DNA from: Phoronis australis
Taxonomy: Eukaryota; Animalia; Phoronida
Direction: 5' to 3'
Assembly: GCA_002633005.1 (NCBI GenBank)
Contig: NMRA01000157.1
Location: 122,331-186,330 of the forward strand
Length of the DNA stretch: 64,000 nt
Part shown: positions 39,590 to 63,386 of the stretch, in pieces
Layout of the letters: every line of letters starts with the position of its first letter
Position numbering within the stretch: the first letter of the stretch is position 1
Notes under the pieces: model-generated
Database searches by the model: none
Told to the model about the DNA's origin: nothing
What the model saw: the letters and a program-made list of their open reading frames with translations, nothing else
Made by a program: the position numbers and the translations under genes

Positions 39590-40288
39590 TTAAAACAGCA
39601 ACAATGCTTCTTCCATGCTGTCGAAGTACTTTGAATGAACAAGAAATCGACATAATTTATTAATAGCCCCACATCTTGATTCGTCTGACGTCATAGCAAG
39701 GAGAACCGGGTGTAGATATGTAGGTTTTTCATACAGCATTTCTGTCGTAGTTTTCGGTCCTAGGGTCACCATCCCGACATCGTAGCCTTTAGCATTTGAT
39801 AACATATGACCGTATGCTGTTTTCAACTTGTCTGTGCGCCTAATCAAATCGAAGTAATAGGCAGCCACGTGTGCTTTGGGCTCAATCTTTAACTCATCGG
39901 AAGAAAGATTTATGCCACAGTGGAGCTTTGCATTTATGACACCAGCATCATTGCCGTACGCTTCTTCAAGTAATGTACCCATTTTAGTACCTGAAGGACG
40001 TGGATTGATTTCGATTAACCTTGGCCAGGCGTTACCTTTGTCACGGATAAGTTCGACGTTGTACACCCCGTGGCGAAGACCGACGGCTAGAGAGCACTGA
40101 TACGAAGCTTCAACCAATTTCTCGTTCATCTTTTCTGAATCGCCACCAGGAATGGTGACAGAAGTGTTCCAAAAATCCGGTAGTGGGGGAGGGCCTCTCT
40201 TAACAATGAAGCCGCCAACAAGTTTTCCGCGGGAAATCACCACGTCAACTGAATATTTGACACCTTTCAGGTATTCCATCACAAGCAC
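39590..40288 (-). CDS. ATP-grasp ligase (carnosine synthase 1-like), last coding exon
   Basis: Acceptor ttttcag|GTG. Encodes VLVMEYLKG, GVYNVEL and PRLIEINPR (ATP-grasp C-domain) and ends in a TAA stop. Confidence 0.9.
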   Translation of the reverse strand: MLVMEYLKGVKYSVDVVISRGKLVGGFIVKRGPPPLPDFWNTSVTIPGGDSEKMNEKLVEASYQCSLAVGLRHGVYNVELIRDKGNAWPRLIEINPRPSGTKMGTLLEEAYGNDAGVINAKLHCGINLSSDELKIEPKAHVAAYYFDLIRRTDKLKTAYGHMLSNAKGYDVGMVTLGPKTTTEMLYEKPTYLHPVLLAMTSDESRCGAINKLCRFLVHSKYFDSMEEALLLF

Positions 40289-40775
40289 CTGAAAAATAAA
40301 GAGTACCTTTGGTGAGCGACTCGATATTCGCTAAGTAGTACCAATGAAGAAAGGTACCTCGGTTAACATCCGGACAGTTTAGGGCAAAAGCATGAGAGCT
40401 TTTGTGTTGCCGTGTCTCGTGCGATTATCAGAATACTTGTATTTCTATGGGCATGACTCTTTCCTCGAATAGGACCATCTAGCGAATTTCGACTTTCCCA
40501 TTTTGAGCTCATTGAGCTGCATAAAAATTGCTTTTGCCGCAAACTGAGGTTAATTACGCAAAAATTTCTCAACAAAAATTTTCCAAATTTTGAAACCACC
40601 AGGAAGTTCGTTTGTGACTTATTAGCTGAGTGCCTGGAGTTTGAGAGGTATGAATGCCTATGAAAACAGTGAGAAACAAAACGTGTTTACACGGAATTAC
40701 CTTTCTGCTGTTGCTACAGAGAGTTTGCTTATAATACCTTCTGTCCACCCTAAAGCACTAAAAATCAAATCTTAC

Positions 40776-55639: not shown

Positions 55640-56357
55640 TCAATTTTACTATATGCTTTACACAAATCATATTCCCACCCCACCCGAACCTCTTGGGGCC
55701 CGCTTGTTTATAAGCTGCCTATTGTGTCCGTACCAACAATAACCGGGCAAAGTAATAGATTTATTTGCATGTAAATGAGTTTCTACCACCCTTATGATGT
55801 GGGCGTTGAATGTAGACAGCAGTTGTTCACGGAGCAATGAATTGTTGCTAATCCAACCACAGACATTGGCCTCGCAAATCCTCAAAACGCTGTCCTATTC
55901 TGCATCACGAATTGTTTTATTCCCCGAGTGAGCCTCCTCACCTGTGGTCACTCTCACAATTCAACCATTTGAAGGGATCTTGAATTCCTTGTTGTTCGGC
56001 AAAGTTTCAATAATTGTTTTGAAATTAATTTCAATTAACCTGCCAGTGAGAGATTTGCTTCCACGAAGAAAAACTCGTTGAAATAAAAGCGTGCCCTTTA
56101 AATTTTGCTTGTTCCGCAGCACTAAAAGTTTTTGAGCCAGTAACTCAACAGCATCAGTATCCCACTGTCGAGGGTTCAGACGGGTGCAATCCAGTTTGGT
56201 CACATCTGAAGACAGGCCCATACTACATAACAGTTCTTCAATCACTTCGCGTAAAGGTCGGGTTCCGTTGACTATGCCTGATGCGATAATACACAAGTCA
56301 TTGTTTTTCAAAGGGTCGTTCTGAATGACTAAATCTGAACCATGCGTGTAATGCTTC

Positions 56358-56662
56358 TGTAGTAAATGTCGACGTCAGTCTCGGCTGTGGCGTCTCTATG
56401 TTGTGATGTCCTTTTCGTTAACAATGTTGGTCTTGGCCTTGTGCGACATCTGACGCCAGAAGATCCCAGCCGAGGTCACCCTGATATCATGTGACCCGTC
56501 ACCTTTCAAGACCACGTGACAAGATAGTCTGGGCCTTCTGGAGTTCGCTGCCGTCCTGGGCGGACGTAATGTAAGTATACTCCGGACTTTTCTCTTGCAT
56601 CGCGTTAATAGGCCGAACCTGTGTGTCTGCTTGGCCAGCCGACCCCTATTACTAAGACAACA
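56358..56662 (+). repeat. 5' LTR (305 bp)
   Basis: TGTAGT...ACAACA, a direct repeat of 60975-61277. Confidence 0.95.
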
Positions 56663-56664
56663 TT

Positions 56665-56678
56665 TGGCGTAGTTGGCA
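56665..56678 (+). promoter_or_regulatory. Primer-binding site, tRNA-Ser type
   Basis: TGGCGTAGTTGGCA, 2 nt after the LTR. It is complementary to the tRNA-Ser 3' end (...UGCCGACUACGCCA) with one G:U pair. Confidence 0.85.
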
Positions 56679-56994
56679 CCTATTTCACGGTGTTGGAGCG
56701 GCGTGCGTGTCTTTCGGTGGTGGCGGGAAATAAGTTTTCATAACTTGTTTTCTCGTGCCCATTTTGACAGCCACGTGCGTCACTTCTTTTGCAGTGCCCG
56801 AGTTCAGGTTTACTAGAATTTCAAGCGTTTGTCGTAGGAATTATAGGTTTATGTAAATAGTTGGTATAATTGTATATAGTATAGTTTGTATTTATTATTT
56901 TGTATATTAGTTAGAGTTTAGAACCTTTCTAGGAATTCTAGAATAGGTCACGTGACCACGTGGTTTTCCTAAGACAAAGCCCCGTGTGTTTAGT

Positions 56995-58416
56995 ATGTCT
57001 TTTCAAGACAGGGTTCCGGTAAACTTCTGTCTTTCCCAAGAGTTATTCAAGCTCTCGGGCATGACGGAAGATACTGCTCAAACCATTCTGGCGTTTCGGC
57101 AAACTCAGCCGATAACTCCAGAAAATATTAACCACATCCATTCCGCATGGAGGTTGACGAGGAGTGCTATTTCTGGCATTGATTTCACCCAGTATGGTGA
57201 TGTTCAGTCCCGAGTTACCTCTCCTCTGGGTAGTCCTGTACGTACCCGTTTGCCCCAGGACTTAAGTGGCATTGCCCAGGCCTGTGACAGGTTAAACAAA
57301 TCCCCTGTTACAGTAAGAAGGAAGTATTCTACTAAGCAGGATTCTCCTTCGTCTGTGCCTGCCCCGAGTTCTGGTAGCCGAACGGTTGGTCCGTCTACCC
57401 ACACCCGTCCCTATAGTTTAAGGCCAAATGCCCCGTCTAAGTTAGTTTTTCAATGGGAAAAAGGCAAATGGGAGGACTTTTTTGGAAATTTCAGCGCTTA
57501 GCCAAGGACAACTTATGGTCCGAAGACAAGTGCGTCTCTGAGTTAAGAATGTGTTTGGACGATGTGGCCTTGCATTTCTTCCTTAACTTCATGAGAACGA
57601 ACCCAGACTCTGGTTTCGATGACGTGGTTGCACACATGTCAGAACATTTTTCTTCGACTGTCTGCACCCAGGTCTTACGCCTTGAATTCCAATACGTCGA
57701 GCAAAAGCCGGGGGAATCTATTGAGAACTGGGCGTGTAGGTTAAACAGGTTGTTTTTAAAAGCCTTCCCGAACCCGTCGGAGCAAGAAAAAGTAGATCTT
57801 GTATTCCGTTTCTCCCTTGGGTTACGAGATAAGGTTGTAGGTACGCAGGTGATGAACTCATCCCCTGTGACCCTAGCTGAGGCAGAGTCTAAAGCTGCAT
57901 GGTTCGCAACGACCCAGCGATTGATGGCAAATCAAAACCGTCGGTCTGTTTGGTTCGAGGGCCCACCATCGCGCAATGACGAAGCTTCTATCAACCTGCA
58001 CTTAAATTCTGTCCAATAGCATCCTCTGCTTCAAACTCTGCGGTTGAGTCTAGGCTGCATGCTTTAGAGTCTCAGATGGCTAAGGTCAACTCTGAAATAG
58101 GAGGTCTTAAAGAAGACAATGCCCTTATACATCGAGAACTTAAGAGTATATCCCAGACTATGAGTTCGAATTTTAGGGGCATTACCCCAGATTTGTCGAG
58201 GGTATTAAAATTGTTGGATTCTAATCCAAAACCATCTAGATCCCCTCCACTATCTAGGTCCCCCAAACTTCCCCACAGAGACCTTCAGTAATGTGTGGTA
58301 AGTTTGGTCACTACCAGTCTGCGTGCCGTAGCCCGCAGCCTGCTAGAATTCTTCGTACATCCTTTGGGGATAAGTCCGATGATTTAAACGAGTTGGGGCT
58401 GGACGATCAGGTCTAA
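56995..58416 (+). pseudogene. Gag (HhH-like N-terminus, capsid domain, coiled coil, degenerate zinc knuckle), three frameshifts
   Basis: WEDFFWKFQRLA..WS...L...A, EFQYVEQKPGESIENWACRL and FSLGLRD capsid motifs, and CGKFGHYQSAC at 58294-58326. The pieces are ORFs 56986-57501, 57453-58019 and 58076-58291. Confidence 0.85.
58383..58389 (+). promoter_or_regulatory. -1 ribosomal frameshift slippery site T TTA AAC
   Basis: In X XXY YYZ phase with the gag zinc-knuckle frame, 9 codons before the gag stop. The -1 frame opens here, right after a TGA, and runs into ORF 58428-58895. Confidence 0.75.
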
Positions 58417-60086
58417 CTCCATCCCAATTGCAATCTCGTGGTGCCAATAGTAGGGTATCCTCAGACCGCCCCACTAAAAGATTCAGTCCCATGGATGGTC
58501 TATTAGGTTCATTAAATAAAAACATCAAACGCCTGTCGACTAACCTGTTAGACTGTTTTAAAGTACGGAGTTTGTCCACTTCTTCTCGAGGTATTTCTGT
58601 GCACGATGCGTGTCGGGGGAGAGGTCGACCTGTCTTGGCTAGATCTTGTGATGTAGTTAATGATTTGGTTGACTTGTCGACTGATATTCTTTGTGCTCGG
58701 AATTCCCTGGGGGATATGGAGTGTCCGGCCTCCCAAAGTTCCGTGCTCACTCAGAATAGTCCGATTGAATTACCCATTACTGATGCTGATGTGATTAATA
58801 CCCCAATATTGGTTCAGGTTAATTCGATAGATAAGTCTGAGTTGAGTGGTAAAGCTGTTTCTAGTACCCAGGTTGTGGCTAATTCTAATTCATAAGATAT
58901 TGTGCATACCCTGGTTCCGGATTCCATTTCAGAGGGGTCAAAGGTGCCCCACAACCCTGTCGTTTTGCGGGATCCACCTCCTGAGTTTGTAGATGCCCCT
59001 ATGGACACTATTAATATTCAGGAGGCGTCTTCTGGTAACACCCTACACCAACAGGCTGGCCGTCTGCTTCACTGGAGGCAGAAGGTCACTCTTCCACAAA
59101 GGGTGAGGGATGCTGGTTCGCCATACCCTCGGATGTCGTGTGTGGAAAAGCCGCCAGCCACCTGGCCTGCCCCTAAAGGGTCGACGTTCATCTGGGGCTT
59201 CGCCGTCCGCATCCAAAGTTAAATCAGGACCGGCCCCTGATTTGGCTATAGATGCCCACTTCCATTTGGATCGCTTGTCGGTATCCTTGGCTCAGCGTCA
59301 TATCACTGAGAGTAGGATGCTGACGATTGACCAGATGCTCAGCGCCCAGCTGCCACGGGTTTCTCAAAAACCTGTACGGTTGGTCGGTGGGATTGCAGTT
59401 TTCTGCGATGTGGAAAACTGGAAGTACATTGAGGCTTCCCGTTTCCCACATGGCTGGAAGGCTGTGGTGGGCATCCACCCCAAACTGGTTGGAACAACAA
59501 ATCCCGGTGTTCTAGAGCGTCTCCCTCAGCTACTAAAGGAGCCCTTTGTAGCTGGCCTAGGCGAGGTCGGTCTGGAGGCCCGGGAGGACTTGGCCAAACA
59601 AAAAGAAGCTTTGGAGGAGATGGTGCGAATCTTTGCGGAGGTTCGGGCCAGCTCCCCCAGCTTCAAAAACAAAGTCGTGGTGATCCACCTTCGTGGTTCC
59701 CCCGACAATCCACGCTTCTTGGAGGGACAAGACTTTGTCTTTGATCTCCTGAAGACTGTGATGCAGACTTGGGTTTGCATCTCCATTGTTTTGGAGGTGC
59801 GCCCGAGGATGTACTCCGATGGACGTGGTTCTTTAAAAACTGCCACTTCGGCTTTGCCGGTCATGTGAGGCAGTTTCTAAAGTTCCAAAATAAGGGGTTA
59901 CAAGAGGTTCCGCTGAATCGACTCCTCCTGGAGTCTGATTCACCGCACCTCGCCATTGGGCAATCCCCAATGGCCCCCAGATACCTGGGGGAAGTAGCTA
60001 TGGAGGTGGCGCAGCGTTCTCGTCGTCCGCTGCGTGACATCCTGGCTGTTTCCACCAGGAATGCCAGGCGGCTTTACCATCTCTAA
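58383..60086 (+). pseudogene. tatD: Second ORF in the pol position: S/P-rich linker plus TatD-family nuclease (domain about 59242-60086)
   Basis: DAHFHLD, GIHPK, GLGEVGL, VIHLR, HLHCF, LLLESDSP and NARRLY motifs. One premature TAA (58893) and two frame changes (about 59100-59220 and about 59768). Confidence 0.92.
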
Positions 60087-60960
60087 CAAATTGTTAGAAG
60101 TGGTTTAGCATCCTGGTGTGCTTGGGTCATAACTTATGCCCCAGGTTGTCGCCTAGTCTCCGGGGTAACTGCCCGTTATTGTAAATTATGAGGCGGACGT
60201 CAGTCTCTGGGTTTGTGCCTTGCCCTTGGTCCTAAGAGAATTGTGGTGTCCACTAAAGTAGAATAAGTAGTTAAGTAGCGTACTGGTCCAATATTTTGTA
60301 TAGTAGTGCTTGTTCATTAAAACTATATAGTATAATTATTTTTGTTATAAGTTATGTTTCCATACTACATATATGGTCTATTTATATATTCAAGACTGTT
60401 TTTTCTATAGTATTATGTATTAGTTGATGCTATATAGTTTATTTTTGTATATTAAGTTAAGTTTTCCATATAGTCTACGTATGTTATGAAAGGCTATATC
60501 ATTTTATATTTCACTGTATCACTACTAAAGTATAATGAATACTCATTTTATGGCCAGTATGCTTTTCATTGTTCAGTTTTTTTTAAAAAAAAATGTATAT
60601 ATTCTCTCGCCAGGTCATCACCAACAATCAGAGTGTTGTCATAGCATAGTCCAGAAATTCCATGCTCCCTGGTACTTGTATTAGTGGGGCATATTTTTCT
60701 TTTTTTCTTTTTTTAGTATGTTCGACTACTCTAGTGGATATATGCTATGACTGTGTGTCTCGTTAGTGTTTGTTTTTTTGGTAGGGGGGAGAATAGTTGG
60801 ATTTAATTTTAACCAGTAATTGGTACTTTACAAGGTCACTCCACATCATGTTAGTTATAGGGTTTAAGGTCTTGTCACTGTTATCTTAGGTCAAGGGTTT
60901 ATGTTTAGATGTTGGGAATGACGTTCGCCATTTTCTATAAGGGCTGCACTCCTTTTCTTT

Positions 60961-60974
60961 AAGGAAGGGAGGAA
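60961..60974 (+). promoter_or_regulatory. Polypurine tract
   Basis: AAGGAAGGGAGGAA immediately before the 3' LTR. Confidence 0.9.
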
Positions 60975-61277
60975 TGTAGTAAATGTCGACGTCAGTCTCG
61001 GCTGTGGCGTCTCTATGTTGTGATGTCCTTTTCGTTAACAATGTTGGTCTTGGCCTGGTGCGACATCTGACGCCAGAAGAGCCCAGCCGAGGTCACCCTG
61101 CTATCATGTGACCCGTCACCTTTCAAGACCACGTGACAAGATCGTCTGGGCCTTCTGGAGTTCGCTGCCGTCCTGTGCGGACGTAACGTGAGTATACTCC
61201 GGACTTTTCTCTTGCACCGCGTTAATAGGCCGAACTTGTGTGTCTGCTTGGCCAGCCGACCCCATAACCAATACACA
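60975..61277 (+). repeat. 3' LTR (303 bp)
   Basis: TGTAGT...ATACACA. I count 9 substitutions against the 5' LTR, plus a divergent last 15 or so nt. Confidence 0.95.
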
Positions 61278-61680
61278 CTTCTCCAACGCGCTGACACGGT
61301 TTTCGAGACATGCAAAATCCATGTCAATATCCGCCTTGAAGGATTTTAGTTTGATATCAGTAGAATTTGTAATCTCATGGCGTATTTTATCTATTTTGGA
61401 TTCAAACGTTTTTCTAAGCCCATCTTGTGCCGACTTTAGATCTTGAATTTCTTTCAACATGAGTTCAGATATCTCACCTTGATGATCACGTGGAGCTGGA
61501 GAGGTCGGCATGCTTGATATAGCTTCACTAATTGTAGGTTGAGAATTAAACTTTTTGTTACTTTTATCACCTGTACGGTTCATGGTTGTCCTTAACTCGC
61601 TACTGTCCTTGCTTGGTTTACGTTAACGTACAATTTGCCACTCAGAATCATCCATTGAATTGGAGCAAATTTAAAAATCA

Positions 61681-62014: not shown

Positions 62015-62135
62015 GAGTTCAGTAACGCTAGGACTTCGTTGAAATGCAAGACTTCGCAAGATTACGTGAGATGTTGCCAAATGAGAACGCATGATTTTGG
62101 TTAGATTTTTGCGAGGACCTATCATTACTGAACTC
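62015..62135. repeat. Short palindromic MITE
   Basis: GAGTTCAGTAA...TTACTGAACTC ends. The left half recurs at about 35635-35695. Confidence 0.6.
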
Positions 62136-62329
62136 TACCCTCTTGAAGCGACATGTTAAACCTGGCGGTGGAGAACACTGATGTATCAAAATGGCTCCCA
62201 AGTATATTTGTTGTTTTTTCTTTTCTCTGTTACAGGTTCCGGTTACTACGAAAAAGTCTTTTTGTAAATAATTATTTAAAAATCTCGATTATTGGTTGAA
62301 AACTTCATCATGATGTTCATAAATGGAAA

Positions 62330-62640
62330 AGAGGGAGCGAAGAATTTTATTGTGCGAAGGTCTTTACTGCCTACGAACAATAATCCTCCATGAACCCTAT
62401 CGAACATTAATTGAGTACCTGCATGCAACACAGGGCCAGGTACTGGATACGTTGAAAGAGATGTGTGGTTAGACTCCATTTGCTGGAAGACAACGCAGTG
62501 CGAGACATGTGTTCCGCAGAAGCTGCTGTATTCTATATTCCAATGCCACTGCGCTTCACTTTGCAACATTACTGTATGTTCCCACAACAATCGGACACCT
62601 TGCTCTACTGTGATAGGGAACAGCACCAAGCTAATTTGAT
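62330..62640 (+). pseudogene. Decayed Helitron Rep/helicase fragment
   Basis: Across frames: TQGQVLDTLKEMC / LHLLED...CSAEAA...PMPLR / FATLL. This resembles the TF.EAC..LGLLEDD...EAA...P..LR.LFA segment between the Rep and helicase domains. Confidence 0.55.
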
Positions 62641-62889
62641 TGAGGTCTTTGTTCAGTACAGCTAAACATGTGAAACATACATTCACAAATAGATCTGTGC
62701 ATGTGAATTTGACGTATGGTAATAAAGACACATTGTGTGTATATACTTCGTCGTATTACCACCATCACATTTGTGTGCGGGTGAAATAACTATAAAAATG
62801 GACGATCGAAAAAGAATGAAATGCGATCAACATAGGTGGCAATAGAAAATAATGTAAAGGACGGAACGGTAACTTTTTTCTCTGTGGTG

Positions 62890-63180
62890 AACTCTATCGA
62901 TAGACTTATTAACTTTATCAATATACATATTAACTCTATCGACAGACTTATTATCTCTATCGATAGATTTCATTTCTCTATCGATAGACTTACTATCTCT
63001 ATCGATTGACTTATTAACTCTATCGATAAACTTACTATCTCTATCGATAGACTTATTGATTCTATCGATAGACTTATTAATTCTATCAATAGACTTACTA
63101 TCTCTATTGATAGACTTATTAACTCTAGTGATAGACTTACAATCTCTATCGACAGACCTACTATCTCTATCGATAGACTT
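62890..63180. repeat. 21-bp minisatellite with palindromic core CTATCGATAG
   Basis: About 14 tandem units of TCTATCGATAGACTTA(TTAAC/CTATC). Confidence 0.92.
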
Positions 63181-63386
63181 TGTACTCCACCAAAGCAGCA
63201 GACGAAACCGAGGTCGGTTCCTCGCTTGTATGATTGTTTCATTAAGCTTCTGGGTAGGAATCGCACATGTTTATGTCTACGCTACATGGTGAGTGTTGCT
63301 GAACTGCTTACTGTTGATCAATTAACGGGCGGGGAACGAGCACGTAGATCGTAATCTGCTTCATTTCGTGGGTTTGTGCCTGTTAA

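Follow-up and report, generated by a model that had tools for sequence, protein, structure and literature searches.

We analysed a 64,000-nucleotide (nt) stretch of the genome of the phoronid Phoronis australis (contig NMRA01000157.1, positions 122,331 to 186,330), referred to here as the window. An element of 4,920 bp occupies 56358-61277, at the position given by an earlier note on this DNA, and carries gag and a TatD nuclease domain with no detectable pol. With its paired long terminal repeats (LTRs), target-site duplication, primer-binding site, polypurine tract and gag homology, it is an LTR retrotransposon derived from the Ty3/gypsy group.

Element structure and integration site

The 5' LTR (56358-56662, with TG...CA ends) and the 3' LTR (60975-61277), both on the plus strand, align over 305 columns with 12 substitutions and 2 gap columns and are 96% alike. 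CTTC target-site duplications flank them at 56354-56357 and 61278-61281. Two bases past the 5' LTR lies a primer-binding-site-like motif, TGGCGTAGTTGGCA (56665-56678, plus strand), which we take to be a match to tRNA-Ser; no tRNA gene was found in the window. The 3' LTR is preceded by an AT-rich non-coding region (60087-60960) and a polypurine tract of 14 purines (60961-60974), both in plus orientation; GGGAGGAA of this tract and the LTR start TGTAGT are identical in a related element (locus L034, below). The element contains no undetermined bases (N). Five of the 14 LTR differences fall in the last 16 columns (56647-56662 versus 61263-61277; binomial p ~0.0006, for an interval picked post hoc), and gene conversion or assembly error is a possible cause.

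When the flanks are joined without the element, they form a minus-strand open frame of 245 codons. Its distal piece lies at 55961-56357 and by position resembles ORF1 (open reading frame 1) of a long interspersed nuclear element (LINE); its N-terminal piece lies at 61282-61622. Endonuclease-like (weak Pfam match) and reverse transcriptase (RT)-like frames stand farther along the minus strand, and we infer that the interrupted repeat is a LINE. The empty site was also present in sequencing reads, which came from two DNA runs of one sample (X1 and X2) and three RNA runs of another study (X5, X6 and X7). Both DNA runs contain a joint from 56353 to 61278 (depth 691 and 104), as do two RNA runs (6 and 7 reads); it skips 4,924 nt, the 4,920 bp of the element plus 4. 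Therefore, the unit integrated whole into a multi-copy host repeat. The earlier note had described the LTRs, the CTTC duplication, the primer-binding site and polypurine tract, a clean excision that restores the host frame, and integration as one unit, and each was found as described.

Coding regions of the element

The gag region (56995-58416, plus strand) comprises a helix-hairpin-helix (HhH) domain, a PNMA-like capsid, a coiled coil and a damaged CCHC zinc knuckle. Its Pfam matches, HHH_3 and PNMA, are weak and under the cut-off. Profile hidden Markov models (HMMs) built from the related elements described below recognised the HhH domain (independent E-value, iE, 5.6e-7), the capsid (iE 4.4e-30) and the knuckle (0.003), and identity to the capsids of relatives is 22-33%. 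This gag is homologous to the gags of elements ordered protease, RT, RNase H, integrase. In the present copy its frame is broken near 57477, 57992 and 58259, and again at ~58292 inside the zinc knuckle.

At the end of gag, in gag phase, lies the slippery heptamer TTTAAAC, followed by a potential stem beginning with GGG; together (58383-58425, plus strand) they form a predicted -1 frameshift signal. An in-phase TTTAAAC was found at the junction of gag and the next ORF in 9 of 11 relatives, the other two having a run of N and a broken frame, respectively. The fold downstream of the window heptamer was not above shuffled sequences (z -0.68; relatives +0.4 to -1.8), with a folding program that does not model pseudoknots. 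A -1 open frame starts exactly at the heptamer (58383) and runs into an aromatic-poor spacer of about 285 codons (58383-59241, plus strand). Over 58383-59144 the spacer frame holds 1 stop, and the other frames hold 10 and 28, where 13 are expected per 286 codons. In this copy the stop is at 58893-58895, and the frame breaks near 59145-59150. The spacer had no match in Pfam or against the fetched proteins and loci, and a search for a degenerate protease within it found none. It had no match in the ESM Atlas either, from which neither novelty nor absence follows. In relatives, the pol spacers that precede the protease are 66 to 410 residues long.

The spacer is followed by a TatD domain (59242-60086, plus strand; broken near 59754), recognised by Pfam, the clade HMM, motifs and a tree. 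Pfam TatD_DNase (PF01026) matched in two frames, with E-values of 7e-11 and 2e-13 (42 and 51 bits, cut-off 27). All five TatD catalytic motifs (HxH, GExG, xHxR, HCF and E[TS]D) are kept, as DAHFH at 59251, GEVGL at 59560, IHLR at 59683, HCF at 59784 and LESD at 59928. The second coding region thus ends in a clear TatD domain, as had been claimed. The further claim of a single second ORF reaching 60960 does not hold for this copy, in which the stop, the break at ~59145-59150 and the break near 59754 divide the region, TatD lies in two frames and coding ends at 60086.

Related elements and origin of the TatD domain

Relatives of the window TatD were numerous, with 237 representatives of 50%-identity clusters at E <=0.001. 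Of these, 150 were listed. Relatives with a named source occur in Mya, Mercenaria, Mytilus, Pinctada, Diadema, Strongylocentrotus, Lytechinus and Ptychodera; one cluster from Mya arenaria holds 13 proteins more than 90% alike, on several long contigs. We fetched 63 loci, comprising 48 of 138 pattern matches from metagenomes and 15 of 37 from contigs of metagenome-assembled genomes (MAGs). Upstream of the TatD ORF, 25 of these have an integrase, 7 only the PHD that ends pol, and 3 gag or protease without RT or integrase; 28, mostly short contigs, have no gag or pol domain. Seven complete relatives were scanned (loci L013, L015, L026, L052, L054, L057 and L060), and all seven are autonomous elements with gag (HhH, PNMA-like capsid, CCHC), pol (protease, RT, RNase H, integrase, PHD) and then a third ORF (ORF3) containing TatD, which is a separate frame after the pol stop.

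Before TatD, the ORF3 of these relatives carries a domain with Cys/His residues and helices, present in 53 of the 54 relatives with at least 250 residues upstream and in 56 of the 63 loci. An alignment of L056 (2710-3201) with 35 other loci showed invariant C, H, H, P and W, and the L056 domain has a confidently predicted fold (pLDDT 87.5). It gave no Pfam match, no clear match in BFVD and a best Z of 3.7 against 48,161 PDB representatives, which does not imply a new fold. It is an unnamed domain of the gypsy-TatD clade. This domain is absent from the window; the string LLHWR at 59064, tried as its tail, was not significant (iE 0.9-4.5) and is a hint only.

No row of the tree exceeds 40% identity to the window TatD, which falls inside a 40-row clade of retroelement type (support 100/99) on a long terminal branch (1.54). 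The tree had 67 rows (4 of the 71 chosen were dropped for want of a usable HxH start), was midpoint-rooted and carried no clade test; its label 'cell' was given by length and score, not by name. With this root, the nearest outside group is three eukaryotic TATDN2-like rows. Because the window gag matches the gags of the clade and its TatD falls within their TatD clade, the nuclease was inherited and not newly captured. On sequence grounds, it represents ORF3 of the autonomous gypsy clade ordered gag, then protease, RT, RNase H, integrase and PHD, then ORF3-TatD. The earlier note had proposed a novel cargo swapped for pol, which the integrase upstream of TatD in 25 of 63 related loci speaks against. 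TatD does take the place of pol by position, in the pol frame behind the slip site, a placement that the earlier note leaves out; it was not captured there.

No part of pol was detected in the element, as had also been claimed. A motif scan for protease, RT, RNase H, integrase and PHD found none, six-frame searches with HMMs of these five domains from the seven relatives gave nothing significant (best PHD iE 0.19), and tblastn with the relatives' pol proteins gave no match. As far as homology can tell, the element arose through loss of pol and of the ORF3 N-terminal domain. Three other loci keep ORF3 without RT and integrase, namely L034 (1-6604), L008 (1-3372) and L006 (1-2975), and are apparently independent pol-loss derivatives. 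L034 has a terminal 127-nt overlap that delimits a 6.5-kb unit with open gag, protease and ORF3, and it looks like a circularised high-copy unit. ORF3 and its N-terminal domain share one frame in L034 and L008, and ORF3 is broken in L006. None of the three has TatD in the pol frame. The layout of the window element is by this comparison new: pol and the ORF3 N-terminal domain are gone, and the nuclease sits in the pol frame, after the slip site of gag.

As candidate Gag-TatD fusions we rejected P0178, in which a gag-HMM match and TatD belong to a coral TATDN2 with CCHC knuckles, and P0116 and P0070, which are ORF3s with a CCHC motif. P0055 and P0126, also with a gag-HMM match and TatD, are ambiguous gene models. 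The CCHC motifs of P0116, P0070 and P0178 may connect TATDN2 with the captured gene. In longer proteins, a search for gag found nothing among 227 candidates, and none of 28 pattern matches in viral contigs was confirmed. Gypsy-TatD sequences, including several full elements, were also found on 15 MAG contigs of bacterial symbionts (L049-L063), which are probably host DNA in symbiont bins; the database entry of one gypsy-TatD protein names it a TatD hydrolase of bacterial origin.

Sister copies and expression

Contigs from DNA run X1 follow the path of the window element at high depth: 688 over 58070-58264, 644 over 58293-58552 (across the slip site), 485 over 58523-59036 (no gaps) and 797 over 59414-59835. 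Minor contigs have depths of 28-64, and some low-depth contigs carry internal TatD deletions. Depth is not copy number, and these values suggest some ten to a few tens of copies. The stop at 58893-58895 was absent from all listed depth, that is 518 of 518 in X1, 105 of 105 in X2, and 14 of 14, 29 of 29 and 7 of 7 in the RNA runs. At the TatD break near 59754 an allele other than that of the window accounted for 826 of 979 in X1 and 243 of 254 in X2, compared with 15 of 33, 1 of 6 and 2 of 9 reads in the RNA runs. Summed, the frame offsets of the sister alleles listed leave gag and the second frame both open. This copy is dead, with several breaks, and most sister-copy depth lacks those breaks. 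High-depth contigs across the pol-less junction and several alleles agree with the earlier note's non-autonomous LTR family, apparently multi-copy, and sister contigs and alleles that follow the gag-spacer-TatD path agree with its claim that TatD is common to the copies.

About 6 of 78 X1 contigs continue into unlike DNA. The loose ends listed lie at 58293, 59037, 59096, 59663, 59809 and 60147, and 16 further rows exist beyond them. Among those listed, no contig at least 80% alike leaves the gag end for other DNA. Since no listed contig runs into unlike DNA just after gag, no close pol-bearing parent is evident. Four X1 contigs enter at 59037 or 59096 from different upstream DNA, and these points may mark a parent lineage or breakpoints; the one contig listed, of depth 45, may represent a pol-bearing relative or a truncated copy.

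In RNA run X7, a single strand, taken as sense, covers 57850-59389, across the pol-less junction, at a depth of 3-15, and no joint is listed. In 12 X7 reads, the short TatD stretch 59395-59427 is linked directly, on the opposite strand, to a PBS-like motif and a different LTR-like end; this may reflect a derivative of far smaller size or a match by chance.

Other features of the window

Beyond the element, near-palindromic units of 21 nt are repeated in tandem at 62850-63222, where both strands have open frames. A short repeat of very high copy number is found at 62017-62078, and the adjoining 62168-62735 is strongly expressed from one strand (depth 90-224). On the minus strand, a frame at 39590-40330 encodes an ATP-grasp domain (Pfam ATPgrasp_Ter, E 4e-12) and is probably an exon of a host gene.

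Discussion

Accessory nucleases and loss of pol both have precedents among LTR retrotransposons. The available parts of a study of bdelloid rotifers describe the elements Juno and Vesta, with a DEDDy exonuclease as ORF3, and TelKA2n, a non-autonomous family that lacks most of pol and the C-terminus of gag and keeps ORF3 (PMC5408684). These resemble the window element in having a nuclease as accessory ORF3 and a non-autonomous family that retains ORF3. They differ in that ORF3 is DEDDy or env-like; in the same parts of the study TatD is not mentioned, no frameshift fusion appears and no role is demonstrated for the accessory nuclease ORFs (PMC5408684). TR-GAG elements of plants, as far as the accessible text describes them, carry only gag, or gag and protease (PMC6022998). 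They share with the window element the LTRs and gag and the lack of RT and integrase, whereas the window element, which probably belongs to an animal family, adds a TatD frame behind a slip site and so lies outside that definition. The autonomous gypsy-TatD clade has the same gag architecture, the TTTAAAC heptamer, the polypurine tract with LTR start and a TatD with the motif D[SA]HFHLDR; unlike the window element, it has its own pol, the Cys/His-helical domain and TatD in a separate third ORF. Against the background of the rotifer elements, nuclease ORF3s and a pol-less family that keeps ORF3 are already known, and the nuclease in the pol slot is the unusual feature here. The literature listings searched showed no paper on TatD in retrotransposons that looked relevant, with most subscription journals and Repbase Reports lying outside its coverage, where the clade may be catalogued; TatD is unmentioned in the text of PMC6431247.

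We give roughly even chances to the following explanation. The window element would be a degenerate member of a gypsy family that is apparently present in several copies, has no pol of its own, borrows Pol and carries its inherited TatD as a likely minor Gag-spacer-TatD fusion, packaged and acting on reverse-transcription intermediates. One or more internal deletions would have joined the N-terminal spacer of pol to the stretch before TatD; given the pre-protease spacers of relatives, such a deletion is the simplest origin. The RNA of the family would then yield Gag and, by -1 slippage, a little of the fusion, since a TatD placed behind the slip site is likely, as predicted from the frames, to be a minor product. 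Particles may co-assemble with helper Gag-Pol, which presumably supplies RT, integrase and protease, and the nuclease could act within them on RNA:DNA or single-stranded intermediates. The least certain step, argued by analogy, is that the nuclease is kept by selection and, like its sister group TATDN2, shortens or degrades the RNA of RNA:DNA hybrids. This proposed activity derives from human TATDN2, which, in the portion of the report available, degrades the RNA strand of R-loops and requires E593 and E705 (PMC10711561). Both metal-binding glutamates are spaced alike in the window TatD and TATDN2: in gibbon TATDN2 they stand 112 residues apart, in GEMGLD and ETD motifs, the window keeps both motifs, and its spacing matches that of E593/E705. 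TATDN2 shares the TatD fold motifs and is the nearest outside group in the tree, whereas it is a cellular gene with ~25% identity to the retroelement clade, whose enzymes' activity is predicted. A stronger version, in which a satellite without replication enzymes has rewired the gag-pol frameshift to load an intact TATDN2-related nuclease at Gag-Pol stoichiometry and is selected for it, is a tentative proposal that we rate somewhat below even.

Several observations weigh against the packaged-fusion explanation. An in-frame join arises by chance one time in three, a young deletion inherits open frames, and loss of the conserved ORF3 N-terminal domain may have disabled the normal role. Among the listed contigs none bridges 59036-59414 and none spans the element, and no pol-bearing partner that could serve as helper is evident among the read contigs. 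RNA depth is low across the element, and reads of either strand occur in X5 and X6, where those of the opposite strand equal or outnumber the others over TatD. The TATDN2 link is provisional because of the long branch, the midpoint root and a tree without any named TATDN1 or TATDN3. Differences from sister copies, taken from a listed subset that is mostly private to this copy, gave no sign of constraint: those listed were not enriched at third codon positions (7 of 15 in TatD versus 11 of 27 in the spacer, p 0.75), and divergence among them was not significantly lower in TatD (21 of 422 versus 38 of 514, p 0.14).

The absence of a selection signal in codon positions is also what would be expected if deletion of pol had simply left TatD in frame and the derivative had spread on its cis signals, perhaps with its Gag, while an unselected TatD decayed. 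We consider this possible, at well below even chances. The low-depth contigs with internal TatD deletions and the missing ORF3 N-terminal domain fit it, as does the loss of pol with ORF3 left behind in 3 of the 63 loci, one of them (L006) with ORF3 broken; TelKA2n is a precedent, and in the available parts of that study rotifer ORF3s show no significant departure from neutrality (PMC5408684). Against it, none of the listed contigs points to a close parent, and still the sister depth shows no stop in the spacer and every catalytic motif survives. The passive account is nevertheless a strong rival, since a recent deletion that kept the frame would give the same picture. That the structure is an assembly artefact or a single-copy deletion, which the gap between read depth and copy number might still allow, is scarcely credible and largely refuted: the gag-spacer-TatD path recurs in independent DNA contigs at high depth and in another study's RNA reads, and the element has no N.

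Selection could instead act through conflict, with Gag-TatD favouring the pol-less family either by destroying the RNA of the helper where both share particles or by clearing stray RNA:DNA hybrids before host sensors respond to them. The family appears abundant, no close helper is visible and a Gag fusion would bring the enzyme into shared particles; we nevertheless think this role unlikely, as the same intact enzyme occurs in autonomous relatives from molluscs, echinoderms and a hemichordate, which points to a use for the element itself. It is more doubtful still that TatD is made separately, from an internal start or a subgenomic RNA, with the slip site a relic. ORF3 of the relatives, its own frame past the pol stop, is probably made in that way, a methionine occurs early in the spacer frame and the fold at the slip site is weak. 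Against separate expression, the heptamer is precisely where the -1 open frame starts, the X7 listing (at a depth of only 3-15) contains neither a splice joint nor a transcript start, and the N-terminal homology of ORF3 is gone.

For annotation, the clade matters in that its ORF3 proteins have been deposited as host 'tatD' or 'TATDN2' genes or as bacterial MAG genes. Should TatD be a mere passenger, the element is an ordinary deletion derivative of an interesting clade. A pol-less family that retains TatD as a Gag fusion would locate the action of the enzyme in the particle and offer a compact test system. If the satellite reading is true, the particle is where an accessory nuclease does its work, and a parasite of a retrotransposon gains more from it than from a polymerase of its own.

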